Positions 4,811 through 52,220 of a DNA stretch of 54,686 bases are shown here, one piece after another. Position numbers and translations under genes: made by a program. How positions within the stretch are numbered: position 1 is the stretch's first letter; each line of letters opens with the position of its first letter. The notes under the pieces were generated by a model. It worked only from the letters and a program-made list of their open reading frames with translations, did not search any database and was not told the origin of the DNA. Origin of the DNA: an uncultured Oscillospiraceae bacterium (GTDB taxonomy: Bacteria; Bacillota; Clostridia; Oscillospirales; Oscillospiraceae); NCBI GenBank assembly GCA_964570015.1, contig CAZMXF010000001.1, positions 1 to 54,686 of the forward strand. Direction: 5' to 3'.

Positions 4811-4839
4811 TCTCACTATAGAAACTGTGAAAATTACGA
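4811..4839 (-). promoter_or_regulatory. type-1 promoter-like motif, copy A
   Basis: Minus strand reads TCGTAATTTTCACAGTTTCTATAGTGAGA. It lies immediately after a T10 run and before the RBS of the 27-aa ORF. Confidence 0.45.
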
Positions 4840-5003: not shown

Positions 5004-5033
5004 TCTCTACTATAGGAGCTGTTTTTATTACGA
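5002..5033 (-). promoter_or_regulatory. type-1 promoter-like motif, copy B
   Basis: Minus strand reads TCGTAATAAAAACAGCTCCTATAGTAGAGAGG. It lies directly after the terminator hairpin at 5042-5085. Confidence 0.45.
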
Positions 5034-27105: not shown

Positions 27106-27186
27106 TTTTGTTAACTCCTTTGCGTTAGTAGTATGTTTTCTTCCATTTTGAATTTTCCTTTCGCCATTGCGGTATCCGTCTTACAG

Positions 27187-28458: not shown

Positions 28459-28489
28459 TGGAAATTACCTCCGTACTTCCATTTTGAAT

Positions 28490-29728
28490 TTATCTTTTGG
28501 GTCTACGCCTGTAATCATTGTTACTTACAGGGCCACCAGCAACAGCTTCACCCTGCTTCTGAGCTTTATTGCCTGTTCCGGAATAGTTGCGGCCGGAGGA
28601 TGAGCTTGAAGACTGAGATGGCGCTTCAGTTTTTTTACCAAACAGATTCTTGAGGAAAGCACTGCCGGTAGCAAGAGCGGATGAGCCTTTCTCTTCAATG
28701 TTAGCGAGAGTGTTAATGGCCCATTTATTTCCAGCTTCAAGCTGATTCTTAAGCCACTGAGCACCCTGTTTAGCAGAACCAGAAGCATCGTCGATCATAT
28801 TATCAAGAGCATTAAGAGCTTTAGAGGCTTTATAAGCAAGGCTCTTCTGCTCTTCTTCGGCTTTACGATACTGCTCTTCACCGAGTTTCTGCTTTTGCTC
28901 TGCTCTATCATAGTCACTACGCAACTTATTGGCTTCATCGTTATTTTTGTCTATAAGTGAATTCGACTTCTCAAGATCACGTTTAGCAATAGCTTCGTAG
29001 CCTTTAACTTTTTTATCAGCTCGTGCGCTTGCTTCTCTTGCTGCATCTTCTTTAGACGCTAGTTCAGACTGGTATGCTGTCTCTTCATCGTACTTTTCCT
29101 TGGCAACTCTATATTGTTCGGACTTCTTGCCGTATACCTGTTCTGCAGCTTCAAGATTTTCTCTTGCCTTTGAAACTTCGGCACGATGTGCGTCTCGCTC
29201 TTTTATAGCTTTCTCAGCTTCTTTTCTGGCAGTTCTAGCTTCTTCTGCAGCTTTTCTGTATCCTTCAATCTGTTTATTTTCTTGCTCACTTCTATTCGCA
29301 TACTCTTTTCGATATGTCTCAATGTTTTTTTCTTGATTAGATTTTATCTTTTGTTTTTCTTTCAGATTTTCCCGAGCATAGTTCCCAGCAGCTTCTTTCT
29401 GAGCATCGACTTTCTTGGAGTAATTCTTGAAGTCTTTAGCAGCATTTGAAACATTCTGTTTGGTAGCTTTGTAGCCTGCAGAAATGTCTTTATCAGCACT
29501 CTCAGCTACTTTTTTAGCTCCTTCACGGCCATTTTTCAGGTATTCCTTCGGAAGCTCATACAGATATTTCCATACGCCACCAATCAGACGTTTGTCGATG
29601 TACTTATGGCCTTTCTTCCATTCCGATCCCTTGGCTGAGTGCATCAAATAGCCACCTTGCATGGAACTATTGGACATCATATAGTTTCCATGACATGAGG
29701 CGTTATTTGATCTCATATAATACGCCAT
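28490..29728 (-). CDS. Lys/Glu-rich coiled-coil head-module protein (scaffold or ejection protein candidate)
   Basis: 412 aa. The N-terminus reads ..YLMHSAKGSEWKKGH... A long charged helical region follows, and the tail is Ser-rich. Confidence 0.6.
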   Translation of the reverse strand: MAYYMRSNNASCHGNYMMSNSSMQGGYLMHSAKGSEWKKGHKYIDKRLIGGVWKYLYELPKEYLKNGREGAKKVAESADKDISAGYKATKQNVSNAAKDFKNYSKKVDAQKEAAGNYARENLKEKQKIKSNQEKNIETYRKEYANRSEQENKQIEGYRKAAEEARTARKEAEKAIKERDAHRAEVSKARENLEAAEQVYGKKSEQYRVAKEKYDEETAYQSELASKEDAAREASARADKKVKGYEAIAKRDLEKSNSLIDKNNDEANKLRSDYDRAEQKQKLGEEQYRKAEEEQKSLAYKASKALNALDNMIDDASGSAKQGAQWLKNQLEAGNKWAINTLANIEEKGSSALATGSAFLKNLFGKKTEAPSQSSSSSSGRNYSGTGNKAQKQGEAVAGGPVSNNDYRRRPKR

Positions 29729-31560: not shown

Positions 31561-32307
31561 ATGAATGAATATATGGTTCGCTTAATTCTCTTGATACTTA
31601 TTGTTGGCGCAATTGTATATAGAAAGCAACTTGTCGAACTTATATCTTCCAAAAGAAAATATTCTGCAAAAGACGCCTTCGATAACATAATCAAATATTC
31701 AGATCCAAATCTGCCAGCCCAACGACCAGTGACAAAAGAGACTTTGCATGAAGAACCTCAAGAGCGATCTGAGCCTTCACCTGTACCGTCAAAACCAAGA
31801 ACAATTCCATCTACTTGCGGAAAATGTGGAGCAAATCTGGAATTAGATTTAGAACATTTAATAACATTTTGTCCTTACTGTGGAACAAAACTATTAATAG
31901 ACATTGATCTCGTCGAAAAGTTTTATGCTGAACGAGAAAAAACAAAACGAGAAGAACTTCAGCAAACTTTTAATCTCGAAAAAGCTAAGATAGATGCTGA
32001 AGTAAATGAACGACTTGAGCACAAGAAAGCTCTTATTAATGCCAAAAAAGAACGTCAATTAGCTCGCGAGAAGGTCAAACTTGAACGAAAGCTAGCGAAA
32101 GCAGAGATTCAGAAAGAACGTGAACGCGTTAAAGCTGAAACCCTAAAAGAAGTCATGATCGAACGAGAAAAACATACGAAAGGTGTTCGAATTCTAGTAA
32201 CTATCAGCGCTTTAATTATTGGCATTCCAGCAATTCTGCTTTTATTAATCTGGATGGCAACAGACGGGCTATTGTCGTCACTAACAAATTTCTTTTCGTC
32301 CTTCTAA
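31561..32307 (+). CDS. bitopic/two-TM zinc-ribbon coiled-coil membrane protein (moron; function unknown)
   Basis: This is the only convincing plus-strand phage gene. It has an N-terminal TM segment, the zinc-ribbon pairs CGKCG...CPYCG, a long K/E coiled coil and a C-terminal TM segment. Confidence 0.7.
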   Translation: MNEYMVRLILLILIVGAIVYRKQLVELISSKRKYSAKDAFDNIIKYSDPNLPAQRPVTKETLHEEPQERSEPSPVPSKPRTIPSTCGKCGANLELDLEHLITFCPYCGTKLLIDIDLVEKFYAEREKTKREELQQTFNLEKAKIDAEVNERLEHKKALINAKKERQLAREKVKLERKLAKAEIQKERERVKAETLKEVMIEREKHTKGVRILVTISALIIGIPAILLLLIWMATDGLLSSLTNFFSSF

Positions 32308-34945: not shown

Positions 34946-34971
34946 TTATAGTCTTTTCGGTGAGTATAGTG
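34946..34971. repeat. left arm of 26-bp inverted repeat
   Basis: TTATAGTCTTTTCGGTGAGTATAGTG. Its reverse complement matches 35080-35105 at 25/26 positions. Confidence 0.9.
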
Positions 34972-35079: not shown

Positions 35080-35105
35080 CACTATACTCACGGAAAAGAC
35101 TATAA
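35080..35105. repeat. right arm of 26-bp inverted repeat
   Basis: CACTATACTCACGGAAAAGACTATAA. The arms are separated by a 108-bp spacer (34972-35079). Confidence 0.9.
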
Positions 35106-35123
35106 GGACTAAAAATATAATTA

Positions 35124-35190
35124 AACCCCCGGAGGAAAAATTGAGACCCCCGCGATCAGGGGGTGGGGGTGCTTTTTAAATAACCCCCGG
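35124..35190. other. candidate cos / terminase recognition region
   Basis: Direct repeats AACCCCCGG (35124-35132 and 35182-35190) flank the palindrome CCCCC-GCGATCA-GGGGG (35147-35163). The region is non-coding and lies upstream of TerS-like/HNH. Confidence 0.4.
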
Positions 35191-35399
35191 TAGGGGCCTT
35201 TATGAGTACTTTTCAGGGGCATTCGGGGCCGGATTGGGTCCGAATTGTCCTTTTCTGTACTCATTTGAATGCAAAACGTGAAAGAATTGTATAAAAAGAT
35301 GCTTCAAGTCAAGAAATACTATGCATAAACACACAAAAAGCATAATAAATCTCAACTCAAAGCATCTAAAACAAAAGGAAAACAACACAAAAGAACTAC

Positions 35400-35675
35400 T
35401 TACTGATCAACTACTTTAACATAACTGACTTCCTTGCCTGTGACAGGACTTTTCAGTCGAATGTCCAGCTTTAAGAAGTCATCAATTGCACCTTCGATAG
35501 ACGAATCCATTTCGCGAGGCGTAAAATCCGGTGAAGTAACAGCTATACGAGCCAACAACGAGCTCGAATAGTAGCCGCAAACAGCTTCATCATAAGACGC
35601 CCATGTATCATACTGCTTGAAAGGATTATACGGGTTATCGGAGGTCGATAACATAGTGCGAGCCATGAGCATCAC
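35400..35675 (-). CDS. hypothetical protein
   Basis: 91-aa ORF overlap-coupled to the stop of the 966-aa gene. The start could be one of three ATGs between 35675 and 35666. Confidence 0.6.
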   Translation of the reverse strand: MMLMARTMLSTSDNPYNPFKQYDTWASYDEAVCGYYSSSLLARIAVTSPDFTPREMDSSIEGAIDDFLKLDIRLKSPVTGKEVSYVKVVDQ

Positions 35676-38572
35676 TCTCCTCTCAAATTGAATTGGCTAA
35701 GATCGATCTCTTTGGCAAGCGTAGATCTGGAAATGCCAAGTTCCTGAAGAATATCAGGCACTTTTGCTCCATTTCGAAGCATTGAAAGGGCATGATTTTT
35801 CTTTGCTGCACTCAATCCAGTATCTTTTTTTGGCGTGAATTGCTGCTTTAGCTCGTTTTTATCAGCATATTTCAAAAGTTTCTTCAGACTAGTCTTTGAA
35901 ATAGCGCCCGCATTGATTGCTTCCACTTCTCTGTCTGAGAAAGTGACCTTATAGCGTCTCTTATGCGTAGGATCATCACGAGTTGAACCATAAACAAGAT
36001 CTCTGGCCTGCTCGATCATCCGGCTGGAGATCTTTTTAAGCTTATCAGCATTCTCTTTGCTATTAAGATCAGGATTTGCCTGCTTTGCGGCATCAATCTG
36101 ACTTTTTGCAATTGCCTGGGCCTGCCGTTCTTTCGGAGCTTCCAGTTCCGCTTTTACAATCTTATTATTTAAACTTTCAACTTCATCCTTGTAAATTTCT
36201 TTTGCCGATTTGTTAACTTCCAATTCCTGCGTACTTCTGGATTCTTTTCTCGCTTCATTTCCTAAAGCTTTTAATCTGTTGGAATGATCAGCATAAATTT
36301 TTTCTTTCCAAGTTCCAGACGAAAGTTCATGCGCATCATCAACATAATCCAATTTCTCAACTTTTTCAGTTGCTTCCTTAACTTTTCCGGTTTCTCTGTA
36401 AACTTTTTTGCCTTTATTGTATCTTTCCAACTCAGCTTCAGTCATAATGGAAGGATCCGTAATCTGCTTTGTCTCTTTGTAAGTACGATTTGTATTACGA
36501 TAGATCTTTTCACCATTGTTATATCTTTCCAATTCTTCCGGGGTCATATCATTCTTACGGGTGATTTCTTTTCTTTCCGGAATAACCATTTCGCTCTTGG
36601 CTCTGGATATCAATGTTGAAGCGCCACCACTTCCATCATCGTTTGCATGCCGTTGATATTTGTCTACAAGCTCCTGAATTCTGTTGTCTTCATAACTTTT
36701 CTGCCAATCCAGATTGTGCTTTTCGGCATCGATAACGACCATGGAATGCTTAACCGCTCTGACAATTTCATCAGAATCAAGCTCAGCGCCTTTAATAGTC
36801 ATGTCTGTAATAAGATTCGAGATCTTACCCATTTCCATGCCTTTATTGAAACTATCGCCAACCATTCCATCACGGCTTTTGCCAGTACAACGCTGTGTAT
36901 CTGGATTTCTAGCATATTGATCATTTGGATTAAAATTAATCAGTTCATCAATTGCCGGATCGGTTTTAAAGTTTTCGCCTTTTGTCGGAATGACAAGAAC
37001 CGTATCGCCATCACAGTCTGCACCGGAAAGTTGTGCTCTTGTTGTCGGATTAACACCTATTGCATGTTCCGGATACTGTCCTATTTTATCAATGCCTTCC
37101 TGATTATTATTATTAACAGTCAGTTTCGGAATCTCAAATGTACCGGCATGTGGATGACGAATCAGAATTACTTCTTCACCATCTTCATACATTGGAGCAT
37201 AAACTTCGTTCTTTCCAAGAGAATTTACAGGCATTAAGACTTGCGTACTTTGTCCAGAAAAACTTGCGCCTTTTAAGTCCACAGCTGCAGAATCACATTT
37301 TGAAGCGAATTCATCCATCATTTCTTTTCGAATGGTTGGATTTGAAATGTCTTTTATTTCATCAAATTCACGCTCAAATTCATCATATTTCTTGTCAAGC
37401 TGTTTCTCGATAGTTGATGGATATTGTTTACTTAAAAATTGTGAAGATGAAGTGTTTGCCCATTTGTCCCAGTCTTCATTATCATTGACAATATTAATTG
37501 GCGAAGTATGCATTTCTCCATCAGAACCTTCATAATCCCACTGACGAAATGAAGCTCCAAATGGATTTGACGGGTCATTCTTCATATGCTTCAGAACAGT
37601 ATCATCGCCTTCTCCAAGCATTGGCGTGCCTTCGTGCTTATTAGTGTTAAACATAATATCAACGCCATCAGGCCAATCTTTTAGCGATTCTTCTGTAGCG
37701 TAATGTGCCATACCTTTCAGGTAATGACTATCATCAACAGCGATGCGAACCTGTGCATAGCGATTCTGTCCTAAAGTCAGATCTTCAACGCCTGGACGAA
37801 TCTCAATTGTTCCGTCACTGTCAGTGCCACCCTGTTCGTCATATCGAACAGCAACACGACTAGAATCAACACTTTCAATTGGCTTTCTCAAGACCGGCGT
37901 TTCGCCGTAATCTTTAAAATATAATCCATCAGGAGAGGTTACTTCACCAATATTGTCAAAGACTTCCTGTCTGGTCGTCTCGCCATCACAGAGAATCTGC
38001 ATGGTTGTCTTCTGTTTTGGATTGGAAGCCTGAGGAAGCTGAATATTATAGACGTTGTAGCCCTGATCCTTCAGAATGACACGAGCTTGTTCCAGCTGCG
38101 TTTCACTGATGCCAAGCTGACGATGAACGCCTTCACCAATATCAAGATAGGGCTTTTGCTCCAGCATATTACTCAAATTCTCAGCGATGCCGGACAAAGT
38201 CTGTTTATTCTTCTGCTTATTCGGATCAAGCCAGTTGCCAATGGTTTTATCAGTGACGCCAAGCTCTTTAGCAATTGCAACATTACTCCAGCCTTTATTT
38301 TTCAGCTTCTGAGCCTTCATAAGGGCTTTCATGTCTTCCTGCTCTCTGAAATATCTTTCATAAGCACGAAAGTCATTTGTGCTCAGGCCAAAGGCTTTAG
38401 CAATATCTTTCTCTTTTAGCCCCATTTGCTCAAGCTCTTTTGCTCTTGTCAGAAAATTCTTATTTCGCTGTGGATTCTTGCCGGATCCCCAAGGGTATCT
38501 TCCGGAATGGCGTGGAGTGCCGTACCATAATCCGTCCTCACCCTGGACGAATTCCATCTGCTGAAATATCAT
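35672..38572 (-). CDS. candidate single-chain double-psi beta-barrel RNA polymerase (YonO/RdRP-like) with HTH modules
   Basis: 966 aa. The region ..VILIRHPHAGTFEI..(30 aa)..NPTTRAQLSGADCDGDTVLVIP.. contains DCDGD, encoded at 37004-37018. HTH-like segments are GWSNVAIAKELGVTDKTIGNWL (N-terminal) and VPDILQELGISRSTLAKEI (C-terminal). Confidence 0.6.
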   Translation of the reverse strand: MIFQQMEFVQGEDGLWYGTPRHSGRYPWGSGKNPQRNKNFLTRAKELEQMGLKEKDIAKAFGLSTNDFRAYERYFREQEDMKALMKAQKLKNKGWSNVAIAKELGVTDKTIGNWLDPNKQKNKQTLSGIAENLSNMLEQKPYLDIGEGVHRQLGISETQLEQARVILKDQGYNVYNIQLPQASNPKQKTTMQILCDGETTRQEVFDNIGEVTSPDGLYFKDYGETPVLRKPIESVDSSRVAVRYDEQGGTDSDGTIEIRPGVEDLTLGQNRYAQVRIAVDDSHYLKGMAHYATEESLKDWPDGVDIMFNTNKHEGTPMLGEGDDTVLKHMKNDPSNPFGASFRQWDYEGSDGEMHTSPINIVNDNEDWDKWANTSSSQFLSKQYPSTIEKQLDKKYDEFEREFDEIKDISNPTIRKEMMDEFASKCDSAAVDLKGASFSGQSTQVLMPVNSLGKNEVYAPMYEDGEEVILIRHPHAGTFEIPKLTVNNNNQEGIDKIGQYPEHAIGVNPTTRAQLSGADCDGDTVLVIPTKGENFKTDPAIDELINFNPNDQYARNPDTQRCTGKSRDGMVGDSFNKGMEMGKISNLITDMTIKGAELDSDEIVRAVKHSMVVIDAEKHNLDWQKSYEDNRIQELVDKYQRHANDDGSGGASTLISRAKSEMVIPERKEITRKNDMTPEELERYNNGEKIYRNTNRTYKETKQITDPSIMTEAELERYNKGKKVYRETGKVKEATEKVEKLDYVDDAHELSSGTWKEKIYADHSNRLKALGNEARKESRSTQELEVNKSAKEIYKDEVESLNNKIVKAELEAPKERQAQAIAKSQIDAAKQANPDLNSKENADKLKKISSRMIEQARDLVYGSTRDDPTHKRRYKVTFSDREVEAINAGAISKTSLKKLLKYADKNELKQQFTPKKDTGLSAAKKNHALSMLRNGAKVPDILQELGISRSTLAKEIDLSQFNLRGE

Positions 38573-39141
38573 TTGTCATCCTCCTGCAAAGATTCCTCTA
38601 CCCATGAATCCCGTTCTTTGATCAAGAATATCAATTCTTCCATTCTGTCTTTATCCGGAGCAAACTCCTGAACGTCATCATTCTGGTAGATTCTAAGATT
38701 TACTTTTGTATTTGCAGGATTCACGCCAAACACCCGTTCATACTCCATTAAAAAAAGAGCAGCATAAATTTCAAGCTGCTCCATATGAACCGGTCCGGAT
38801 CCTGTTTTCAGGTCGTGCACTCTCAGCACACCACGATCTAAAGAAATCGCATCTGTATGCCCAAAGCAATTGTCGGTATACTTTAATGCCACTTCGGGAG
38901 TCATGCCATAACCAATGGCATCATTCACAAAAGCGGTAAGGGTCTGCGTAGAACCTCTAAGCTTTAGTCCCTCTCTGATCAGATTCTCAGCAAGCTCATG
39001 CAGTCTGGTTCCTCTCGCAGCAGCCTGTTGAGTGTAAATATAATTGCGAATCTGGTCACGATCATAGTTCAGCCAGTAAGGTTTACTCGGGCTAAGAATT
39101 GCATGCTTATCCTTTAACTCCCAATGTTTGATAAAGTTCAT
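38569..39141 (-). CDS. PD-(D/E)xK family nuclease
   Basis: Start reassigned to ATG 39141 (MNFIKHW..). Contains ..GHTDAISLDRGVLRVHDLKTG.., which fits a D...D-x-K motif. Confidence 0.55.
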   Translation of the reverse strand: MNFIKHWELKDKHAILSPSKPYWLNYDRDQIRNYIYTQQAAARGTRLHELAENLIREGLKLRGSTQTLTAFVNDAIGYGMTPEVALKYTDNCFGHTDAISLDRGVLRVHDLKTGSGPVHMEQLEIYAALFLMEYERVFGVNPANTKVNLRIYQNDDVQEFAPDKDRMEELIFLIKERDSWVEESLQEDDK

Positions 39142-39412
39142 TAAGAACCTCCTGTTTATTTTCAGGAAAAATAAAACGAGCAAACGACATCTGATTTGCT
39201 TGCTCAACATAATAATCCTGATTCGGCTGGTGGCTTGCTTTTTCATAAGCTTTGCATTCCAACAGTGCCCAATGTTTCTTATAAAGAATGGTAAGATCAG
39301 GAATGCCCTGCTTCCATTCATTCTTAAATATCCATGCACCCGGCAAAGCTTTCTCCAGTTCTTCAATTAAATCGGACTGGAACTCTTTCTCCAATTCTTT
39401 TTCTGATTTCAC
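39107..39412 (-). CDS. VRR-NUC / Holliday-junction-resolvase-like PD-(D/E)xK nuclease
   Basis: 101 aa with a GTG start after GAGGT. Contains ..GIPDLTILYKKHWALLECK.., which fits PD...ExK. Confidence 0.55.
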   Translation of the reverse strand: MKSEKELEKEFQSDLIEELEKALPGAWIFKNEWKQGIPDLTILYKKHWALLECKAYEKASHQPNQDYYVEQANQMSFARFIFPENKQEVLNELYQTLGVKG

Positions 39413-39460
39413 AATTTTAACCTCGAAAACTTAAAGAAGTCGTCAAAAAAGGCGTATCTT

Positions 39461-39494
39461 CTCTCTCTACTATAGGCGTTGTGAAAATTACGAA
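39461..39494 (-). promoter_or_regulatory. type-1 promoter-like motif, copy C
   Basis: Minus strand reads TTCGTAATTTTCACAACGCCTATAGTAGAGAGAG. The TAA inside TCGTAA is the helicase stop codon. Confidence 0.45.
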
Positions 39495-40735
39495 TTTTTA
39501 GACCGAAAAAAGGCACTTTCATTGAAATTTCTCTTTCTTTTCAATGCTCTGGAGATTGCAATATCAATCGGAGCATATGTCTTGAAAGAGTAATAATATA
39601 AATCATGAAAAGGCGTGTTCCTTCGATCAATTCGTCCCATTGCCTGTTCAGTTGTCTTGTAGGAATAACTTGGCGAATAAAATAGGATCGTGTCTGTCCG
39701 AATACAGTTCCATCCTTCGGCTCCTGCTGTGTACTGCACGAGATAAACCCACCGCTCTGTATCAGGAATGTTTTGGTGCCGATGGCCATTCCATTCAGCA
39801 AAGGCTGTTCCTTCAGGCCATTCAGCATTTCTCAGAATCTCAAGCTCATAATCGAAATTGTAAAATATAATTAATTTCGGGTGGATTTCAGCAATTCTGA
39901 TAACTTCAGCACAGCGGCTCGGATCAGCATTCACAGTCTTTCGAAGCAAGTAACATAGTTCACTAACGTTTTCAATTGGTTTATTCTCATAGAAGTTCCA
40001 TCGATCACGCATCAAACGCCGATATGATTCTTTGTCATAATCAACCAGAATCTGTTCCATATGTCGCTCTGTTTGTTTATTATATTCGATATCAACTAGA
40101 ATGCTGTCTCGCATTTGCTCAAGATCCCGTTCATTGAAATACTGGTCAACCTTTGGAAACTTGGAATATCTTGAATAGATCACATGCCTATTAACGAAGT
40201 CGCTCTTATTTTTAAAGAACCCATTTGCTATAAAGATAGACAAATAGTCCATCCAGCAATCGCCTGGGGTTGCACTCAAAAATATCCATCGGTTTCTCTT
40301 TGAGATCTTGATAAAGCTCTTTGACCATTTGCCATAACCTACAACACGCTGCTCATCAAAAAGAAAGAAAGAGTCTGTGACATCGATGTATTTCTCAATA
40401 TTATTCCATGAATCCACGACGACTTTGATCTTATCCCGATAATAATTAATTTCAGGATCGCTGGATAAAAGGAATGGGGACATCTCGTGCTCCCATTCTC
40501 TATTATCTCGTTTTTTCGCAGTTGTAATAATATAAAGATCCAAAGGACGTTTCATAGGCACATAATCACTTTCATAGCCGTGATCCTTACCATTGATCTT
40601 TCCGCCACAGACTTTGCAGAAATAATAGGCAAGGCCGGCCCGACTTTTGCCGGAACCGACCCCACCGCATAAAATATTCCCATTTCTTAATTTCTGAACA
40701 GCTTCAATCTGTCCGGCATCAAGCTTGGGATTCAA
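39488..40735 (-). CDS. superfamily-2 (SNF2/DEAD-like) helicase
   Basis: 415 aa. Walker A is ..GGVGSGKS.., the DExx box is ..LFDEQR.., and the C-terminal helicase motif is ..QAMGRIDRRN... Confidence 0.7.
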   Translation of the reverse strand: MNPKLDAGQIEAVQKLRNGNILCGGVGSGKSRAGLAYYFCKVCGGKINGKDHGYESDYVPMKRPLDLYIITTAKKRDNREWEHEMSPFLLSSDPEINYYRDKIKVVVDSWNNIEKYIDVTDSFFLFDEQRVVGYGKWSKSFIKISKRNRWIFLSATPGDCWMDYLSIFIANGFFKNKSDFVNRHVIYSRYSKFPKVDQYFNERDLEQMRDSILVDIEYNKQTERHMEQILVDYDKESYRRLMRDRWNFYENKPIENVSELCYLLRKTVNADPSRCAEVIRIAEIHPKLIIFYNFDYELEILRNAEWPEGTAFAEWNGHRHQNIPDTERWVYLVQYTAGAEGWNCIRTDTILFYSPSYSYKTTEQAMGRIDRRNTPFHDLYYYSFKTYAPIDIAISRALKRKRNFNESAFFRSKNS

Positions 40736-40751
40736 TTATCATCACCAACTT

Positions 40752-41288
40752 TTAGAATGGTGTATTTTCCTCATTCATATTGGCATAGCGATCAGCAAAA
40801 TAGCTTGGAACAATTTCTGCCCAAATCTGAGAAGCAAACAGAGGATTGTAAACTGTTCCATTCTGATGCGTCTTCTCTTTGCCAACTTCAAGGACAAGAC
40901 CGAGATTCTTAAACTCAGCATTATCAAGAACTCCAACATGAGCCTCATCAAGCAGCGTGTCCACGCCGGTACTCGCGGAGATCATATGCACTTCAACAGG
41001 CTTCATATACCAGGATACATTAACTGATACATAAGGTCTTGCCACATCATTATCGTCACGAGGACGGGTGTACTTCACTTCACAGCCAAGGGTCTTGAAC
41101 TGCTCAGCTGAAGCTTCGTCAAGATAGAGCAGAAAATTTCTTCTTCCGGCAGTGTTAACAACACGGCCTGTCTCCTGGTTACGTTTCTCTTCGCCTTTAA
41201 AATTTCTGGAACGAGCTTCATTATCTTTAATCTCATCCACAATAACACTGGTCTTAAAACCGATCTTGTTTACTTCAACAATTTTCAT
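40752..41288 (-). CDS. hypothetical replication-module protein (possible ssDNA-binding protein by position only)
   Basis: 178 aa with RBS AAGGAGA. It lies between the helicase and polymerase genes. No motif was recognised. Confidence 0.6.
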   Translation of the reverse strand: MKIVEVNKIGFKTSVIVDEIKDNEARSRNFKGEEKRNQETGRVVNTAGRRNFLLYLDEASAEQFKTLGCEVKYTRPRDDNDVARPYVSVNVSWYMKPVEVHMISASTGVDTLLDEAHVGVLDNAEFKNLGLVLEVGKEKTHQNGTVYNPLFASQIWAEIVPSYFADRYANMNEENTPF

Positions 41289-41348
41289 AATTCTTTTAAA
41301 TCTCCTTAATAAATTTTATTGTTGACAAAATATAATTAAAAATGACCA

Positions 41349-44300
41349 TCAATGAACGAATTCGTCAAACGAACCGAACTTGTTGATGGTCTCTTTGGCT
41401 TCTTCAGCCAATGTTTCGAAATAGCTCATATCAATATCGTCTTCTTTGTGGAACTGCTGAACGTACTCAGCTTCCATCCAACGATATCCTTTTGAACCTG
41501 CCGCATAAGCATATTTTCCATTATTCTCTCGAACGAGTCTTCCGCCGCCCGTTCCGGGCTTCATCGGGCAGAAGAGACCCGCTCTTCCAACAAAGTGACA
41601 ATCATGGCCTCGTCTAATTTCATCTCTGACTTCAGTCAACCGAATATAATCAGCAAAGTAAGCATCCTTCGTATACTGCTCCAGCTTTTTGTCAGGAATA
41701 TCAACAAGCCTCGGGGCTTCGCCATCAACCAGCTTCTTGTGATTCTCATCATTGAGATCAAAGCCAGCTTTTGACCATTTCTTCAAGAGCTTATCTTCTT
41801 CTTTTTCAACAGCTGTACAATCTCCAAGATCTTCATCCATGTCCAAATATAATCCGAGACCGACCTTTACAGTCTGCGTAACGCACAGATCTCTAAACTC
41901 AAGAGGCTCATGGCTAAATAAAGTTTTGAAAACATACGGATTGCTTGCTTTCTTGAATTGGTCCCCAGTGCCTTCCCACTTCCCTGCCGACTTACCATTC
42001 GCTTTGTCTTCCGTATATTTGCAAATATAAACAGCATCATTCACAAGGCAAAGGCGATCAAACTTATGTTCAATCTCAAACGTGTAGCCAAACTTCTTGC
42101 CATAGTCATAGACAAACTGGAATATCTTTTCGTCAGGATGATCAATCTTAATACTGTCGGTCTTCACATGAATAACCTTGTATCCACGCTTCTGAACTTC
42201 CGTGAGCAGATCAATCATGAAGAGCGCTCCGCGCTTGGCAACCCAGTTGTCGACATTTCTCGGATCATGCAGTTTGTTCTCAAAGTGCGCCGCTGTCAAA
42301 CCATACACAGAGTTAATCGCGATCTTCAATGCGTATGAGAGCGCTGCAGCATCTTCCTCTGAAGTGAGATAAGGCGCAAGCGCCCCATTATAAAGCTTTC
42401 TGGCCTCATCAAACTGTTTATGCTTGATCATGAGTCTCAGATCTAAAAGACGCTTAAAGTTTTCTGTGTAAGGTCCAAAGCCATTCTCCGCTATAATCGA
42501 TGACGGATGGTGCGATGCACTGTCGTAGCATTCAGCGTCGTAGTACATGCCTGGTTCAGCATAGACAAAGCCGCCTTCTCCAGGGTCATAGCCTTTATAG
42601 ATCGATTTCCCAGATATAATTACATCTTCCGAAATATAACGGCTCCGATCGATGCCAAATGGATTAAACTCGTAACCAGGAAACTCTTTGCTGAGATCCG
42701 GATAAACAAACTGAGCCTGAGGATTCTTTTCATTGCCGACAATGAGCTTTGTGGTCAGAGTATTTGTCGTGTCATTTACGGTACTTCCAGGTCCAACCAG
42801 AATATTTGCCAGGTCAGCCAGGATCTGGCGTCCTTTAAAGTCCGCCTGGTTTGCCAGAAAGACAGCTTCAGTTGCAACAACGTCATTGATACAATACTCG
42901 GCAACCTGTTTCCACCTATCCTTCGGAACGGGCTGATCCCATGGAAGTCCTAGCTCCTGGTGATGAATGCCAAGCTCAATCTCCCATTTCTTCAAGCTCT
43001 GCTTCTTGGCACAGAAATCATAGACATCCGTGTAAGATAGATTGTAAGCTTCACGAATCTTATAAACATTCTTGCCTTTGGTCCCGCCTATAATGTTCTG
43101 TGACCTGACAAATAGTTCATACGGAGTTTCGCCCATAATGAGAGCCATTGCAATATGGTTATCGTAGTCTCTATTATTAAACCCGATCACGTTAAAGTCT
43201 CTGAATATCCTAAGGACTTCATCCGATGACGGATTTATCATAGAGAACGCCTTTTCATGAAGAGGTTTAACACAAAGAACAATCAGATTGGGAAACACCT
43301 CAAAATCAATGAACACAATCTTTTTGTCTTTTGTCTCCGGTATGATCTCAGATGGCTCTTCACTTCTGAACTTCATAGTTTCAACCTTGTCCAGACATTC
43401 CAGAGAGTGATGATGTGATGAAGCAGCAAATGCCAGCACAGATGATTTCATATCAGAAACATCATAGTGCATTCCACGCTCATAAGCATCATTTAGTACC
43501 TTTTCTATAAAGCTCACACAAGTAACTGTATAACCAGGCTCAACTTCTTTTCTTAAAGCTTTCTTAATTAGTGATCTTAAATGTTTTTCATCTTCAATTA
43601 CATAATCTTCGACCAATTTTACCTCCTTTTTAAGCGGCAAACCGGAACTGATCGTTGCAATCGGAATATCATTGCATCTGCTCAGCTTTCGTCTCAATGA
43701 CGACTTTCCGGTAAATACCTTAATCTCAACATCTTTTTCATAAACTGATGCAAGCTTACTAACATCTCCTGTGTAAACATACTCTAAATGAATCGCATTC
43801 CCACTCTTACTGAGTTCAGCATAAGTAGGCGGCCACTTGGAAGCGGCCTCCAAATTTAGCTTTAAAGACTTCTCCCCTGTCTCAGGATCCTTCTTGTCAA
43901 AGTCCACCGTAATATAATTATCAGGTGGCATGACATAGTGAAGTTCGGACGTATTAATGTCCGCAAGACAGGTTTCACATTTGTCCCAGGCAACTGATGG
44001 CTGATCACTTCCATCTGTCCGAATATAAGCTGTCTGGGCCGGCCACGAGGCACCAACCTTATCCAGCAGGCTCTCCGTCGTATTAAACTTCAGCCAACCC
44101 TCAGACTCTTCTTCTACCTGTTTCTCAAATATCCCGAACTTTTCAAGCTTCAGACCGCCATACCAGTTTCGAAGATACTTGTCTCCTTCATTGTAGCGTT
44201 CTTTAAACACTCTAAAATAATTTCGCAGTTCTTCTTTAAAGATTCGCTTTGAATAAGGATATGGAACTTTTGCATCACTTACATAAGCGTTATACTTAAA

Positions 44301-45329
44301 CCAAGCATCATTTAATGTTGTAGAGTCACTTTTTTTGAAGTCATCAAAGTATTCTTCCATAAAGTTATAGAAGTCATTTGTTGCTCCAATCATCACCTTT
44401 GGAATATAACTATCATAATAATGAGGATCCTCTTCGTAAACTCTAAGACAATGTTCAGCTATAGCGCCAAGTTCAAAATCAATGCCCTTGAGTAACTGAT
44501 TGTACTTTCTTAAAGGTATCAATTTTCCCGTAGGACTAACATCGATGAGTCTTCTTATAATACCTGACTTGGAATCTGTTATCTTTACGGGTCTATTTGT
44601 TCCAAGAAACAAAAATGTATGAAACGCCATGCCATACATTTTTCCATACTTAGTATTAACCGTCAGAGTCTCATGAGAAACCAGACTATTCAGCAAAGTA
44701 TTATCTTCAATTCTACTAAGATCGCCATCATGCTCAATCGCCACAAGCGGATTATCTTTTAAAGGCTCAAGAGCAAAATCATTGTTTGCACTACCAAGTG
44801 ATTTTGATTTAAACGGGGCGCAATAGCCATCAAACAGCTTTTCTATAATGTGAAGCACCGTTGACTTACCTGTTCCTGAATCTCCATAAAACACAAGAAA
44901 CTTTTGTATCCATCGAGAATCGCCGGAAATTATAGCACCTATTGCCCATTCTATCTTTCGCTTTTCTTCAGGAGCATAAAGAGTCCCAACAAGTTCATCC
45001 CAGCATTTATGGTCGCCTGGTTCAAGCGCATAGTTCAACCGTTTTGACGAATAATTTTCTCGACTTACAGGAGAATTAGAAAACACCAAAGTATCATCTA
45101 ATGGATGAAAATTTTCGTTCGCTTGTTTTTGAACGTATTTGTTCCATTTATCAATAGACCCTGAATCAGTATCCCACAAATATAATACTTTTGCATTTTC
45201 AAGAACTGCATTTGCCTTTTGAAACTTGTCCATTTCGGCATCAATTAAATCAGTAGCATCATCCGGGTCAGTTGACCAACGTCCTTTATCGGCATCCCAA
45301 ATTGCATAAAAGTCTCCGCCTCGAATCAT
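41349..45329 (-). CDS. fusion protein: D5-like SF3 helicase + AEP primase-polymerase domain + family-B DNA polymerase
   Basis: 1,326 aa.
- Helicase: Walker A ..FYGDSGTGKST...
- AEP motifs: ..ITVDFDKKD.. and ..SGNAIHLEY...
- PolB exonuclease motifs: Exo I FIDFEVF, Exo II GFNNRDYD, Exo III YCINDVVAT.
- PolB polymerase motifs: motif A YDSASHHPSSI, motif B KIAINSVYG, motif C HVKTDSI. Confidence 0.75.
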   Translation of the reverse strand: MIRGGDFYAIWDADKGRWSTDPDDATDLIDAEMDKFQKANAVLENAKVLYLWDTDSGSIDKWNKYVQKQANENFHPLDDTLVFSNSPVSRENYSSKRLNYALEPGDHKCWDELVGTLYAPEEKRKIEWAIGAIISGDSRWIQKFLVFYGDSGTGKSTVLHIIEKLFDGYCAPFKSKSLGSANNDFALEPLKDNPLVAIEHDGDLSRIEDNTLLNSLVSHETLTVNTKYGKMYGMAFHTFLFLGTNRPVKITDSKSGIIRRLIDVSPTGKLIPLRKYNQLLKGIDFELGAIAEHCLRVYEEDPHYYDSYIPKVMIGATNDFYNFMEEYFDDFKKSDSTTLNDAWFKYNAYVSDAKVPYPYSKRIFKEELRNYFRVFKERYNEGDKYLRNWYGGLKLEKFGIFEKQVEEESEGWLKFNTTESLLDKVGASWPAQTAYIRTDGSDQPSVAWDKCETCLADINTSELHYVMPPDNYITVDFDKKDPETGEKSLKLNLEAASKWPPTYAELSKSGNAIHLEYVYTGDVSKLASVYEKDVEIKVFTGKSSLRRKLSRCNDIPIATISSGLPLKKEVKLVEDYVIEDEKHLRSLIKKALRKEVEPGYTVTCVSFIEKVLNDAYERGMHYDVSDMKSSVLAFAASSHHHSLECLDKVETMKFRSEEPSEIIPETKDKKIVFIDFEVFPNLIVLCVKPLHEKAFSMINPSSDEVLRIFRDFNVIGFNNRDYDNHIAMALIMGETPYELFVRSQNIIGGTKGKNVYKIREAYNLSYTDVYDFCAKKQSLKKWEIELGIHHQELGLPWDQPVPKDRWKQVAEYCINDVVATEAVFLANQADFKGRQILADLANILVGPGSTVNDTTNTLTTKLIVGNEKNPQAQFVYPDLSKEFPGYEFNPFGIDRSRYISEDVIISGKSIYKGYDPGEGGFVYAEPGMYYDAECYDSASHHPSSIIAENGFGPYTENFKRLLDLRLMIKHKQFDEARKLYNGALAPYLTSEEDAAALSYALKIAINSVYGLTAAHFENKLHDPRNVDNWVAKRGALFMIDLLTEVQKRGYKVIHVKTDSIKIDHPDEKIFQFVYDYGKKFGYTFEIEHKFDRLCLVNDAVYICKYTEDKANGKSAGKWEGTGDQFKKASNPYVFKTLFSHEPLEFRDLCVTQTVKVGLGLYLDMDEDLGDCTAVEKEEDKLLKKWSKAGFDLNDENHKKLVDGEAPRLVDIPDKKLEQYTKDAYFADYIRLTEVRDEIRRGHDCHFVGRAGLFCPMKPGTGGGRLVRENNGKYAYAAGSKGYRWMEAEYVQQFHKEDDIDMSYFETLAEEAKETINKFGSFDEFVH

Positions 45330-45456
45330 AAGATCTTTACTTTTCTTAGCAATAAACTTAGGATAAATTTCAGGTCGTGCATCTTTTTTCGCTCCTGGCC
45401 TGCATTCAATTTTAACGAAATCCGTAATTTAACCTCCTTCCTTCAAAAATTGGTTA

Positions 45457-45548
45457 GTGTCACTTTTGTCTGTTTTTTTCCGTACTCTTTTATATAAAAA
45501 TACTTTTTCTCACGCAATAGGAGCAAAAAAAAGTGACAAAAGTGACAC
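45457..45548 (-). promoter_or_regulatory. promoter of the replication operon bracketed by inverted operator-like sites
   Basis: On the minus strand: -35 TTGCGT (45512-45517), 17-nt spacer, -10 TATAAA (45489-45494). GTGTCACTTTTGTC (45457-45470) is the reverse complement of GACAAAAGTGACAC (45535-45548). Confidence 0.5.
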
Positions 45549-45561
45549 CTAGCACCGATTT

Positions 45562-45762
45562 TTATGCATTTTCGCCTTCATTTTTCAAACGTTGCTTACG
45601 AAACTCCCGAATTATATAAATGAGTGCTTCGTCTGTTTTGAGGCCAAATTTGTTCTTAACACGAAGTATTTCTCCATAATCTCCAAGTCTCACACTGACG
45701 TCTCCAAGTCTGGCGGTTTCATCATATTCGTATTCTTCATATCCAACATCTTTGTCAAGCAT
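45562..45762 (-). CDS. small acidic/basic protein, possible regulator
   Basis: 66 aa with RBS AAAGGAGA. It lies immediately upstream of the operator-flanked promoter. Confidence 0.55.
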   Translation of the reverse strand: MLDKDVGYEEYEYDETARLGDVSVRLGDYGEILRVKNKFGLKTDEALIYIIREFRKQRLKNEGENA

Positions 45763-45774
45763 TTCGGTCTCCTT

Positions 45775-46293
45775 TCAATGATAAAAATTTTCAATACAAT
45801 ACTGATTCAGCTGCCACCAAAGGTCCATTTTCCGCATATCAGTCTCGATTCCTGAGCACGGAAACATTCCTCCCTGCCCATCTTGAGCATATTTTCTATG
45901 CATAAAAACGTCCAAAATATAATCGACTGCACGGGCGTTATAACCATAGTCATCATAAATATCAAGGCCCAGATTCTCGATCATCATCCAAAACCACGAC
46001 CTTGTCTGATCCCCAACCAAAGGATCATACATGATATCACTATCGGTCTTTCGCGCCAGTGCAATCATCATTTCCAGGACACTACATCCCATGGCCATAC
46101 TGAAGTCAGGATAGCCGATTTCCTTTCCAAATAACTTGCGAAGATTGAGTCCTCCTGCCGCACGATTTTCGTCGTAATCAACCTCCCATACAAACTCTGT
46201 TATATAAAGATGATACAGAAGTTTCTGATAGTTCATTTGCAAGTATTCATCATCCAGGAGACCGACTAACCAACGATAATATGCGTCATCCAT
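45775..46293 (-). CDS. hypothetical protein
   Basis: 172-aa ORF with RBS GAGGAGG. No motif was recognised. Confidence 0.65.
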   Translation of the reverse strand: MDDAYYRWLVGLLDDEYLQMNYQKLLYHLYITEFVWEVDYDENRAAGGLNLRKLFGKEIGYPDFSMAMGCSVLEMMIALARKTDSDIMYDPLVGDQTRSWFWMMIENLGLDIYDDYGYNARAVDYILDVFMHRKYAQDGQGGMFPCSGIETDMRKMDLWWQLNQYCIENFYH

Positions 46294-46299
46294 CGGCTA

Positions 46300-46899
46300 T
46301 CAATCCTCCTCTACAAAGTCTCCATACTCATCAGAATATAATCCATCCTCGACTCTGATTTCATTTATGAGGCTAAGCTGTTTGTCATATACAAGCGACG
46401 TTGAGTCAAATATAATTCCGATATACTGATCCCAGTCCTTGCCGAGAACCTTATCCGGATTTCTAATGATCGTGCCATCTTCTAAGCAGACAGTTCCATC
46501 GCCCTTATAGAAAATATAATAACCTCTTCCGTAAGACTTGTCGTCCAGCTCACTCTTGTTAACAACTGGCACAAAACGCTCATCATCTGGCAAATCAGAA
46601 ACAACTTCAGGAGTAACAGGAGTCATATCAAGATCCCTCACGAGAGCTGAGTAATTGGTCTTATGAGTGTCCGGTTTTACCCTTTTTTCACTAATTTCAT
46701 GAACTTTTTCGCCCATAATGAACGGAACCTCATCAGTGCCCTCTAAATCCTCTGAAATGGCCTCAGAATCGCTTGTACGGGCATTTTCAACGTCAGTCGA
46801 TATCTCGCTCAGCTTTTTCTTAATCTCCTTACGCAGGCATATGAGCGTAATTCCGGCGCCTACCGCACAACCACCAAGAAATATAATTAGATTCTTCAT
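46300..46899 (-). CDS. N-terminally anchored membrane protein
   Basis: 199 aa with a TM segment at residues ~4-22. ATGA overlap with the upstream gene. Confidence 0.65.
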   Translation of the reverse strand: MKNLIIFLGGCAVGAGITLICLRKEIKKKLSEISTDVENARTSDSEAISEDLEGTDEVPFIMGEKVHEISEKRVKPDTHKTNYSALVRDLDMTPVTPEVVSDLPDDERFVPVVNKSELDDKSYGRGYYIFYKGDGTVCLEDGTIIRNPDKVLGKDWDQYIGIIFDSTSLVYDKQLSLINEIRVEDGLYSDEYGDFVEED

Positions 46900-47852: not shown

Positions 47853-48115
47853 TTTCGCTCTCCTTCATATAAAATAACGTCCTCTGTTTGAGGGTTGTAA
47901 AATATAATTTCATAGCCTGCTTTTTTGGCTATATTGCGGATTTCTTCAAAGGTGAAACTGTTAGACCATAATTTGTGGACTACAGAATCTTTCGTGAAAT
48001 GCATAGCGGCGGCAAGAGTTTTGTTTGTTAATCCTGCCTTCTTTTTAAACTTTACAATGAGTTTTGATAACGGACGATCTTTGTAAACGTCGTAATACTC
48101 ACTTTCGGTTGCCAT
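47849..48115 (-). CDS. small HTH-like protein
   Basis: 88 aa. Contains ..GLTNKTLAAAMHFTKDSVVHKLW.., which resembles an HTH. Confidence 0.55.
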   Translation of the reverse strand: MATESEYYDVYKDRPLSKLIVKFKKKAGLTNKTLAAAMHFTKDSVVHKLWSNSFTFEEIRNIAKKAGYEIIFYNPQTEDVILYEGERK

Positions 48116-48119
48116 ACTT

Positions 48120-48918: not shown

Positions 48919-48944
48919 TTGGGCTCCTTCCAAAATATAATTGC

Positions 48945-49452: not shown

Positions 49453-49486
49453 TCTCTCTCATCATAATAGCTGTGTTTTTTACGAA
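49453..49486 (-). promoter_or_regulatory. type-1 promoter-like motif, copy D
   Basis: Minus strand reads TTCGTAAAAAACACAGCTATTATGATGAGAGAGA. Confidence 0.4.
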
Positions 49487-49500
49487 TTTTTATCATATGT

Positions 49501-52165: not shown

Positions 52166-52220
52166 GGACAGCGCAACCTCTCTACACTGTCCTCATACTA
52201 AAAGCTGTGAAATTTACGAA
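52166..52220 (-). promoter_or_regulatory. type-1 motif copy E merged with a terminator hairpin
   Basis: Minus strand reads TTCGTAAATTTCACAGCTTTTAGTATGAGGACAGTGTAGAGAGG... GGACAG (52187-52192) pairs with CTGTCC (52166-52171), followed by TTTTACTTTTT. The TAA of TCGTAA is the stop codon of the 52214-52498 gene. Confidence 0.4.

Follow-up and report, generated by a model that had tools for sequence, protein, structure and literature searches.

A single-chain two-barrel RNA polymerase homologue with helix-turn-helix modules at both ends, encoded beside the cos site of a phage genome from an uncultured Oscillospiraceae bacterium, and a candidate promoter motif that accompanies it

The last large gene before the cos site of a phage genome on contig CAZMXF010000001.1 of an uncultured Oscillospiraceae bacterium (assembly GCA_964570015.1; positions 1 to 54,686 were analysed, and this whole stretch is called the window below) encodes a protein of 966 amino acids, which we take with high confidence, on the basis of its active-site signature and its predicted fold, to be a two-barrel RNA polymerase (RNAP), that is, one built on double-psi beta-barrels (DPBBs). 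The features of the gene and its surroundings are listed in Table 1. An earlier note, made from the letters of the sequence alone, had recognised in this open reading frame (ORF) the motifs RHPH and DCDGD, three segments resembling helix-turn-helix (HTH) units and an internal tandem repeat, and all of them are where it had placed them: RHPH at residues 472-475 (nucleotides 37148-37159), DCDGD at residues 519-523 (37004-37018), the HTH-like segments at residues 56-74, 94-115 and 938-956, and the repeat units MTPEELERYNNGEKIYRNT and MTEAELERYNKGKKVYRET at residues 676-694 and 710-728, with the duplication visible in the DNA too (36405-36446 and 36507-36548). The start of the gene overlaps the stop codon of the gene upstream by 4 nt and the start of the next ORF, of 91 codons, in turn overlaps its stop, so that the exonuclease, the polymerase and the 91-amino-acid ORF look translationally coupled.

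Table 1. Features of the polymerase locus and of the rest of the window (positions in nucleotides of the window; residues are those of the polymerase unless stated otherwise)
Feature	Position	Strand	Remarks
Single-chain homologue of two-barrel RNA polymerases, HTH modules at each end, 966 aa	35672..38572	-	ATG start; phrog_4291
N-terminal peptide YGTPRHSGRYPWGSGKNPQR, residues 17-36	38465..38524	-	near-invariant across phyla, predicted disordered
N-terminal helical module, two HTH units, residues ~36-139	38156..38467	-	second unit LuxR / sigma-70 region 4-like
First beta-barrel, beta-subunit-like DPBB, residues ~236-363	37484..37867	-	D253-G254, R276, K286-G287 (YAQVRIAVDDSHYLKGMA) invariant
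Catalytic barrel, beta-prime-like DPBB, residues ~440-530	36983..37255	-	R472-H-P474-H475, D519-C-D521-G-D523; six model strands
Conserved helices after the catalytic barrel	36656..36844	-	MGxxSNLITDMT 581-592; RAVxHSMxVIDAEKH 605-619
Tandem duplication of a ~19-aa helix-hairpin unit	36389..36547	-	lineage-specific; residues 676-694, 710-728
C-terminal three-helix HTH, residues ~922-961	35690..35809	-	G(I/V)SxSTL recognition helix kept across phyla
VRR-Nuc-like small gene, first of the block	39107..39412	-	48% identical to KeaneyLin gp92 (annotated VRR-Nuc)
Cas4/RecB-like exonuclease	38569..39141	-	likely start near 39141; phrog_3953 E 5.9e-60, residues 76-259 of the long ORF
91-aa ORF, phrog_4303	35400..35675	-	E 1.8e-21; 34% identical to KeaneyLin gp95
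Hairpin of 26 bp, then U run, terminator-like end of the polymerase operon	35295..35370	-	-33.3 kcal/mol, z -9.4
cos site CCCCCTGAT / CGCGGGGG, right end of virion DNA	35146..35164	.	contig ends
Motif B TCGTAATTTTCACAACGCCTATAGT, then AGAGAGAG	39469..39493	-	directly upstream of the VRR-Nuc / exonuclease / polymerase operon
Motif B copy	52195..52219	-	
Motif B copy	49461..49485	-	
Motif B copy	5009..5033	-	upstream of a possible small RNA
Motif B copy	4815..4839	-	upstream of a hydrolase-like gene and the integrase
Motif A copies, examples	28476-28490, 27140-27154, 24839-24853, 15922-15936, 5599-5613	-	range 3381-28490
tRNA-Gly(CCC)	512-585	+	
Transposase resembling those of insertion sequences	1400-2755	-	
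Tyrosine integrase	2834-3994	-	
Cro/CI-type HTH protein	5294-5629	-	
r1t-type holin	5589-5963	-	
Candidate ORF, 248 aa, weak DUF7575 match	31561-32307	+	one of few clear plus-strand ORFs

The fold was approached through an AlphaFold2 model built from 64 homologues of 53-92% identity, which has a mean predicted local distance difference test score (pLDDT) of 79.8 and a predicted template modelling score (pTM) of 0.66 and which contains two barrels of six to eight strands. From the N-terminus the chain runs through a disordered stretch (residues 1-33, pLDDT < 50), a helical module with two HTHs (about residues 36-139) and a small alpha/beta domain into the first barrel (about residues 240-363); long helices, a second barrel of six strands (about 442-529) and two strongly conserved helices (577-616) follow, and the C-terminal part consists of duplicated hairpin units, a long coiled coil (755-861) and a three-helix HTH. 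In the second barrel RHPH comes directly after one strand and DCDGD stands directly before the last one. When the model was compared with the PDB by Foldseek, the matches with a probability of about 1.0 were all two-barrel RNAPs, namely QDE-1 (5fsw, E 3e-6), RDR2 of maize and Arabidopsis, and the non-virion RNAP gp62 of phage P74-26 (8f5m_B, E 1.8e-5, template modelling (TM) score 0.37 on the target), over alignments that span 540-930 columns, and the largest subunits of archaeal and eukaryotic RNAPs came after them. No fold other than that of an RNAP was among the PDB matches with E<=1e-3. In the viral structure library BFVD the best full-length matches are phage proteins annotated as RNA-dependent RNA polymerase (RdRP).

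The catalytic signature is conserved far beyond the immediate relatives of the protein. R472, H473, P474, H475, D519, D521, G522 and D523 are invariant in all 64 close homologues, and an alignment of 11 sequences from two bacterial phyla, with 37-70% identity, again shows R472, P474, H475, D519, D521, G522 and D523 without exception. This cross-phylum alignment holds the window polymerase, four metagenomic relatives and six orthologues from isolates (Lactococcus P162, Arthrobacter KeaneyLin, Gordonia Kenosha, Streptomyces HotFries and Bing, and Microbacterium DizzyRudy). Equally invariant in it are D253-G254, R276 and K286-G287 of the first barrel and the two helices behind the second one (MGxxSNLIxDM and RAVxxSMxVIDxEKH). 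An acidic and two basic residues of the beta-like barrel belong to the eight invariant residues described for two-barrel polymerases (PMC2919709), and D253, R276 and K286 would be the candidates for them. Both of the features on which the earlier note had staked its reading are thereby present: two DPBB domains that lead to QDE-1, RDR2, gp62 and the largest subunits of cellular RNAPs, and the Asp triad D519/D521/D523, which is kept in the 64 close as well as in the 11 cross-phylum sequences.

A further link leads to YonO, the RNAP of the Bacillus phage SPbeta. Comparison by hhalign of the cross-phylum alignment with an alignment of six members of the YonO family gave E 7.8e-5 over 142 columns (probability 62%) and paired R472/P474 with YonO R492/P494, D519/D521/D523 with D535/D537/D539, and the G..SN helix with G593/N597 of the YonO family. 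Significance was reached only with these two alignments; the profile of the close homologues against YonO alone gave the correct register at E 0.44, which is not significant. In the first barrel the order DG..R..KG is the same as in YonO (D249-G250, R266, K271-G272), and a sub-alignment of this barrel to the YonO family pairs only the KG motif (K286G287 with K271G272), and not significantly.

At both ends of this core lie DNA-binding modules. Pfam finds in the window polymerase only families of HTH type, in one group at residues 88-131 (HTH_3, HTH_23 and others, with Sigma70_r4_2 weak) and another at residues 923-957 (HTH_23, E 1.8e-10; HTH_7, E 1.8e-6), and the second N-terminal unit, which is helical in the model, has weak profile matches in the PDB to LuxR-type HTHs and to those of extracytoplasmic function (ECF) sigma factors. 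With sigma-70 region 4 the score of the window protein is 15.9 bits, where the cut-off is 25.7, many generic HTH families doing equally well or better, and it is in ORF75 of Lactococcus phage 1706 that both HTHs pass the Pfam cut-offs (Sigma70_r4_2 with 32.1 bits at the N-terminal one, Sigma70_r4 with 27.6 bits at the C-terminal one). Thus the fusion to HTH modules that had been read from the letters alone is backed by Pfam for the second and third segments in the window protein itself and by the sigma-70 region 4 scores of its 1706 orthologue. The N-terminal peptide YGTPRHSGRYPWGSGKNPQR is found in 10 of the 11 cross-phylum sequences, the eleventh, HotFries, having been taken from an annotated start downstream of the tblastn match, and the window, KeaneyLin and P162 each have it a single time; our guess is that it serves as a docking, packaging or partner-binding motif. 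Helices 577-593 and 601-616 are candidate equivalents of the bridge helix and the trigger loop. The hairpin unit of about 19 residues is duplicated in the window polymerase (residues 676-728), whereas in the alignment it is single in P0105 and in the orthologues of the actinophages.

The protein belongs to a large and already recognised family. It matches phrog_4291, which carries the name 'RNA-dependent RNA polymerase', over residues 15-956 with E 3.3e-296, and ORF75 of Lactococcus phage 1706 over its whole length with 35% identity (BLASTP, E 6e-159). A tblastn search returned 250 phage records, all below 60% identity and 249 of them covering at least 80% of the query, mostly from Arthrobacter, Gordonia and Streptomyces phages, with 13 from Lactococcus phages, 2 from Faecalibacterium phages and several human-associated siphovirus contigs; they go by the names 'hypothetical protein', 'RNA-dependent RNA polymerase' or 'HTH DNA-binding domain protein'. 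Identity to the proteins of Streptomyces, Arthrobacter, Gordonia and Microbacterium phages is 37-42%. A metagenomic protein search brought up at least 8000 clusters, and the window polymerase is at most 92% identical to any catalogued protein and about 40% identical to any protein of an isolate. ORF75 of 1706, the 'putative RNA polymerase' of FP_oengus and the 'HTH' or 'RdRP' genes of actinophages share with it full-length homology and the architecture of HTH, core and HTH. In 1706 and the actinophages the gene also takes the same place, with no other large gene between it and the right cos end, and in the actinophages the flanking genes are the same as well.

Ruprich-Robert and Thuriaux placed the 1706 protein among five families of YonO-like two-barrel proteins in 2010 (PMC2919709). 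A preprint of 2021 described the family as a signature gene of an actinophage supercluster and of the group of Lactococcus 1706 and Faecalibacterium FP_oengus, noted the HTH domains at both ends, the DxDGD loop and a match to PF05183 by HHpred, and proposed that the protein may work as an RNA polymerase (bioRxiv 10.1101/842583). What the earlier note had proposed as a whole, a phage-encoded late-gene RNAP with built-in HTHs in a combination poorly described or undescribed so far, therefore holds for the DPBB polymerase fold, the HTH fusion and the place next to the packaging genes; its structural reading was right, but the claim of novelty fails in view of the descriptions of 2010 and 2021. 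The polymerase joins a family known by computation since 2008-2010 and restated in 2021, and is in this respect an ordinary finding for the window. Neither Pfam nor NCBIfam has a model that matches the catalytic core of the family, which is why pipelines name the homologues 'helix-turn-helix domain-containing protein', and a paper of 2026 takes the RdRP annotation of such proteins to mean an enzyme of RNA-virus type (PMC13587820).

Among the enzymes that have been characterised, YonO is the obvious point of comparison, as a proven DNA-dependent RNAP of a temperate Firmicutes phage, SPbeta, in which it transcribes the late operon (PMC5467207). It is, like the window protein, a single polypeptide of similar size from a temperate Firmicutes phage, and the two share the R-x-P ... 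DxDGD barrel, the G..SN helix and the DG..R..KG order of the first barrel. Then again, similarity between them is undetectable beyond about 140 residues, and tblastn with YonO returned 40 phage records, none of which is from the phrog_4291 family, so that by its sequence the polymerase is a relative of the YonO family yet not a member of it. Moreover, Pfam detects no domain whatever in YonO or a distant homologue, whereas the window protein has HTHs at both ends that appear sigma-region-4-like. Whether YonO recognises promoters by itself was stated to be unknown (PMC5467207), and this makes the fused modules an interesting feature of the phrog_4291 family. QDE-1 and RDR2 (PF05183), the best structural matches, are likewise single chains with two DPBBs; they are 10-12% identical in sequence, have no HTH modules and act in RNA silencing rather than in a double-stranded DNA phage. 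The third-best structural match, the non-virion RNAP of Thermus phages (P23-45 gp64 / P74-26 gp62, about 590 amino acids), is a minimal single-chain two-barrel phage RNAP with a promoter motif of its own (PMC10770324), and differs in being the early/middle polymerase of a lytic Thermus phage with GC-rich promoters. The virion RNAP gp66 of phi14:2 (a crAss-like phage), also two-barrel, single-chain and QDE-1-like (PMC10770324), is outside the top 50 Foldseek matches in the PDB and is part of a very large injected virion protein.

Nearly all genes of the window are encoded by the minus strand. Taken in the order of their transcription, they start with small early genes, a DUF5906 primase-polymerase of 1326 amino acids, a single-stranded DNA-binding/annealing protein and a helicase, which are followed by a copy of motif B (see below), the VRR-Nuc-like gene, the Cas4-like exonuclease, the polymerase and the 91-amino-acid ORF. 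The block of VRR-Nuc, exonuclease, polymerase and small ORF is kept in actinophages; two Lactococcus phages have different genes upstream of the polymerase and keep the small ORF and the end position, and in all relatives inspected the polymerase and the small ORF stand at the extreme right end. The small ORF, which follows the polymerase gene in every annotated relative inspected and was compared for homology with KeaneyLin gp95 only, is a candidate accessory factor of the polymerase. The arms of the hairpin behind it are perfectly complementary in one relative (L003) and form G-U pairs in the window, which suggests that it acts as RNA, either as a terminator or as a 3' stabiliser. Three independent metagenome contigs end 516-561 nt past the stop codon of the polymerase, L001 ending at window position 35155, and a related G5..C5-TCTGCATCGCC element stands at the right ends of seven isolate genomes (L006-L011 and L014), its form in Lactococcus, Arthrobacter, Gordonia, Streptomyces and Microbacterium phages being GGGGGAGGGGGTC...CCCCC-TCTGCATCGCC. 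The cos element is conserved across phyla. The contig and genome ends identify the boundary between replication and packaging genes, at which the earlier note had placed the polymerase, as the cos site and make the polymerase the last large gene of the virion DNA. Beyond cos follow phrog_4259, genes for an HNH endonuclease and a virion protein, one that is lysin-like, and the gene of the large terminase. The further remark that the window has no recognisable sigma factor and no T7-type RNAP holds for the 47 window proteins scanned against PHROGs or Pfam, some 18 mostly small ORFs of the late region being outside that scan.

Upstream of the polymerase block lies a promoter-like sequence element. 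Motif B, TCGTAA-N4-(C/A)ACA-N5-TATAGT, has five copies in the window as compared to 0.02-0.12 expected, all on the coding strand and each followed by a purine run. The copy at the polymerase operon is kept in L001 and in L003-L005, whose polymerases are 53-92% identical, and three IMG/VR contigs have the motif about 0.9 kb upstream of the polymerase gene. In KeaneyLin, Kenosha and Bing the block has ACA-N5-TATAAT and a purine run before it, as it does, in looser form, in HotFries and DizzyRudy. In P162 a motif B-like element is found some 5.5 kb upstream of the polymerase gene and precedes a run of genes of which the polymerase is the last. KeaneyLin has six coding-strand hits of one generic motif B pattern between 24.8 and 31.0 kb (0.06 expected) and beyond these a variant copy before the polymerase operon, while P162 has at least 10 copies of TTTTACAYRCCCTATAAT between 23.0 and 46.5 kb. 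The 5' half varies, with CGTAA in the window, CGCGTAAA in KeaneyLin and TTAAG/TTATG in P162; the CGTAA upstream half is shared between KeaneyLin and the window. When 27 instances were anchored on the -10-like hexamer, TtACA proved common at -21 to -18 and C at -13, and a TTGACA-like -35 element was absent at 16-18 bp from the hexamer (median 2/6 matches). Several copies stand directly after T runs or have 5' hairpins after them. The sites lie before early/middle operons and before the operon of the polymerase itself, two of the window copies being near lysogeny genes, and in the window, P162 and KeaneyLin none precedes structural genes. An integrase is encoded by the window phage; the isolates in which motif B was traced we take to be lytic. 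A search for a motif B-like pattern near the YonO-dependent start region of SPbeta gave nothing relevant. Judged by its sequence, motif B looks like a dedicated promoter class that is not of the sigma-70 type. The polymerase is the only gene with DNA-binding domains among the genes compared across phyla, and the idea that its HTHs read motif B is an attractive one.

Between two of the motif B copies, on the minus strand at 4845-5008, lies a stretch of about 160 nt that ends in a T-arm-like GCGAGTTCGAAGCTCGT hairpin and T11. It holds no ORF and may be a small RNA driven by motif B; as it gave no tRNA call and no Rfam match and its fold z-score is only -1.4, this idea was not kept.

Taken together, we believe that the protein is on balance probably the phage's own DNA-dependent transcriptase and that it uses its HTH modules for the choice of promoters. 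Its sequence and model suggest a catalytically competent single-chain two-barrel nucleotide polymerase of the 1706 ORF75 / phrog_4291 family, in which both barrels would contribute to one active site, the first with D253, R276 and K286 and the second with R472, P474 and D519/D521/D523. The sigma-region-4-like HTH modules that appear to flank the core at both ends would supply the promoter recognition that cellular RNAP obtains from sigma, and motif B would be the best candidate for the promoter recognised. The gene is the third of the four-gene block that closes the right genome arm at cos. The analysis shows the fold, the conservation of the catalytic signature, the fusion to HTHs, the synteny, where cos lies, and that motif B exists and is conserved; that the template is DNA and the product RNA, that the HTHs read motif B and which temporal class of genes is served is what we infer. 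A bolder form of the proposal, in which the polymerase is a self-sufficient, sigma-independent transcriptase whose HTHs read CGTAA..ACA-N5-TATAAT with its purine run, and in which enzyme and promoter have been inherited together in phages from Actinobacteria to Firmicutes, is put forward here tentatively, as a possibility that we would not yet call probable.

Several observations weigh against the protein being a DNA-dependent transcriptase that selects its own promoters. The TM-scores from Foldseek reach no more than 0.24-0.37, low values of the kind that a long model with several domains would give, and consequently the fold class of the polymerase is settled while its global architecture is not. 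The window polymerase has no sequence match in the PDB, where the family profile finds only weak HTH matches, and no match to the Pfam RdRP family (PF05183) at E<=1, NCBIfam likewise returning only models of HTH type; over the catalytic loop of its orthologues PF05183 reaches 22.1 bits in 1706 ORF75 (E 7e-5) and 16.7 bits in KeaneyLin gp94 (E 3e-3), the cut-off being 23.8. The residues of the first barrel are assigned by the order of motifs, as the sub-alignment to YonO, with E 0.031 over 10 columns, is not significant. The closest solved relatives, QDE-1 and RDR2, also copy RNA. Motif B contains a good sigma-A -10 hexamer, and so host RNAP, with or without a phage factor, could read it. Furthermore, motif B stands before the operon of the polymerase itself, which would require that the enzyme is first expressed by host-driven transcription or read-through, or that it is carried in the virion. 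Finally, experimental or biochemical work on any member of the phrog_4291 family was not found in the searchable literature.

But which genes would such a polymerase transcribe? An alternative to the role suggested by motif B is that of a YonO-type late-gene polymerase, which would be produced where the replication module ends and would transcribe the packaging, head, tail and lysis genes that come to lie downstream once the cos ends join. This role is suggested by analogy to YonO and by gene position, and we regard it as a serious contender that is nevertheless rather unlikely. The gene order of SPbeta is alike, in that yonO too lies upstream of, and co-directional with, the terminase, portal and capsid genes, and the late operon that YonO starts lies immediately behind yonO (PMC5467207). 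All late genes of the window are on the same strand as the polymerase and downstream of it, and the proteins scanned include no sigma factor. Late regulators of the lambda Q type sit before a late operon that runs through cos, a position which that of the polymerase mirrors. However, the polymerase operon is separated from cos by the terminator-like hairpin, which is very stable (z -9.4), and the motif B copies cluster in the right arm, among early and middle genes, rather than ahead of the structural genes of the three genomes in which this was determined. Motif A, a repeated element of the late region that is described further below, has the look of a translation-initiation context and not of a promoter.

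If the polymerase serves early genes it could, in the manner of crAss-like gp66 or the N4 virion RNAP, be packaged in the virion, injected with the DNA and initiate early transcription from motif B. The presence of motif B without a -35 element before many small genes of the early region in P162 and KeaneyLin would fit with this, as would the adjoining structural module and the invariant disordered peptide YGTPRHSGRYPWGSGKNPQR, which could be a packaging or ejection signal. We nonetheless find virion delivery improbable. The record of phage 1706 labels virion products as 'structural protein' (orf71, for example) and does not so label ORF75, a weak argument given that low-copy proteins are easily missed, no features of a structural protein are evident in the AlphaFold2 model, and the window phage carries an integrase; we know of no temperate phage that injects an RNAP.

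The company of two nucleases in a block that is conserved across phyla at the end of the replication module raises the question of whether the polymerase acts in replication or recombination instead, making RNA primers or R-loops or activating an origin by transcription together with the VRR-Nuc and Cas4-like nucleases. Iteron-like repeats just upstream of the block in KeaneyLin and DizzyRudy lend some weight to this idea, but in the window such repeats are upstream of the primase-polymerase gene and not of the polymerase block. With a primase-polymerase, a helicase and an ssDNA-binding/annealing protein the phage is already equipped for replication, and the sigma-region-4-like HTHs point to the reading of promoters, so that we give a replicative function no more than a slim chance.

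Could the protein be what its name in PHROG and GenBank says, a true RdRP, which would make double-stranded or antisense RNA for regulation or counter-defence? QDE-1 and RDR2 are its closest solved structures and orthologues match the Pfam RdRP family weakly, yet the name stems from profile similarity and not from an assay, and DNA-binding HTH modules, two of them, are fused to the core. QDE-1 itself uses DNA templates too, according to one account (PMC2950127), and YonO, the sole characterised relative of the clade from a bacterial phage, is DNA-dependent (PMC5467207). We consider a genuine RdRP to be quite improbable. Very improbable, finally, is a DNA-binding regulator or cos-binding packaging factor with an inactive relic of a polymerase core, as might be thought from the usual annotation as only 'HTH DNA-binding domain protein', the weak similarities of the HTHs to terminase small-subunit families and the neighbourhood of cos, since the Asp triad, R-x-P and the KG motif are invariant across two phyla, together with some 150 further columns, which makes an inactive core unlikely.

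Why would a phage transcriptase with promoter-reading modules of its own matter? Of all living models, single-chain two-barrel RNAPs come nearest to the enzyme from which every cellular RNAP descends, and to our knowledge few of them have been studied, namely YonO, crAss gp66 and the two P23-45 enzymes. The phrog_4291 family is far commoner than these, with its at least 8000 metagenomic clusters and 250 sequenced phage isolates, and it includes phages of Lactococcus, Arthrobacter, Gordonia and Streptomyces that are easily grown and thus offer an unusually accessible system, even though standard pipelines label its members with a bare 'HTH protein' or, misleadingly, as an RdRP of RNA-virus type. 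Should the HTHs read motif B, enzyme and motif would form a compact system of one polypeptide and its promoter, in which the question of how YonO-like single-chain two-barrel polymerases find promoters could be tested directly. The bolder form of the proposal would give a first answer to that question. It would also mean a phage lineage largely independent of the promoter specificity of its hosts, which could explain how it crossed from phylum to phylum and tolerates a G+C content some 18 points lower than its actinobacterial hosts have. The candidate promoter motif B, the mapping of cos and the conserved four-gene block are what is new in this work, which adds nothing new on the enzyme itself.

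Several features away from the polymerase remain to be described. Just past cos lie inverted 12-bp sites, GTGAGTATAGTG (35080-35091) and CACTATACTCAC (34960-34971), about 110 bp apart, both arms of which change in parallel in L004 (GTGAGTATGAT / ATCATACTCAC). A structured RNA leader was considered for this region and rejected, because its fold is no more stable than that of shuffled sequence (z +1.66, for a slice that cut the 5' arm); alifold on two sequences was uninformative. In view of the unstable RNA fold the paired sites are more likely to be bound by protein, perhaps terminase or as part of a late promoter. The plus-strand ORF at 31561-32307 breaks into the packaging region, where it has the lysin-like genes on one side and the large terminase on the other.

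The late genes end in a lysogeny/lysis module with tRNA-Gly, transposase, integrase, the Cro/CI-type HTH protein and holin, of which the integrase, the Cro/CI-type protein and the tRNA gene would fit a temperate lifestyle. No att repeat of the tRNA-Gly region longer than 14 nt was found elsewhere in the window, so that the window may be either an integrated prophage or a circular assembly. Iteron-like repeats, GTCACTTTTGTCAC / AAAAGTGACAC, occupy window positions 45330-45561 and have counterparts of the form AAAGTGGC(A/C) in relatives (L003, 2983-3190; L004, 2317-2568; L005, 2427-2724; L007, 4427-5119; L010, 75-544). The gut phages have them upstream of the primase-polymerase gene, KeaneyLin and DizzyRudy upstream of the polymerase block, and they suggest a replication origin.

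Motif A, AATTCAAAATGGAAG, has 11 copies in the window with at most 2 mismatches, as compared to 0.5 expected, every one of them in the late region and on the coding strand. Most of them are just past a stop codon and ahead of the ribosome-binding site of the next gene, and the ATG within the motif is the start of mini-ORFs or of real genes. L004 has a single copy (16122). The KeaneyLin counterpart, TTCAAAAT(A/G)GGAG, contains AGGAG, a Shine-Dalgarno sequence, and P162 is not enriched in the motif, and for these reasons motif A was dropped as a late promoter; it is probably a translation-start context. A different ribosome-binding context, TAATTATATTTTGAAAGGA(G), occurs about 12 times on the minus strand of the early/replication region (35123-52910; for instance at 52892-52910 and 49604-49622), and early and late genes thus carry different leader motifs.

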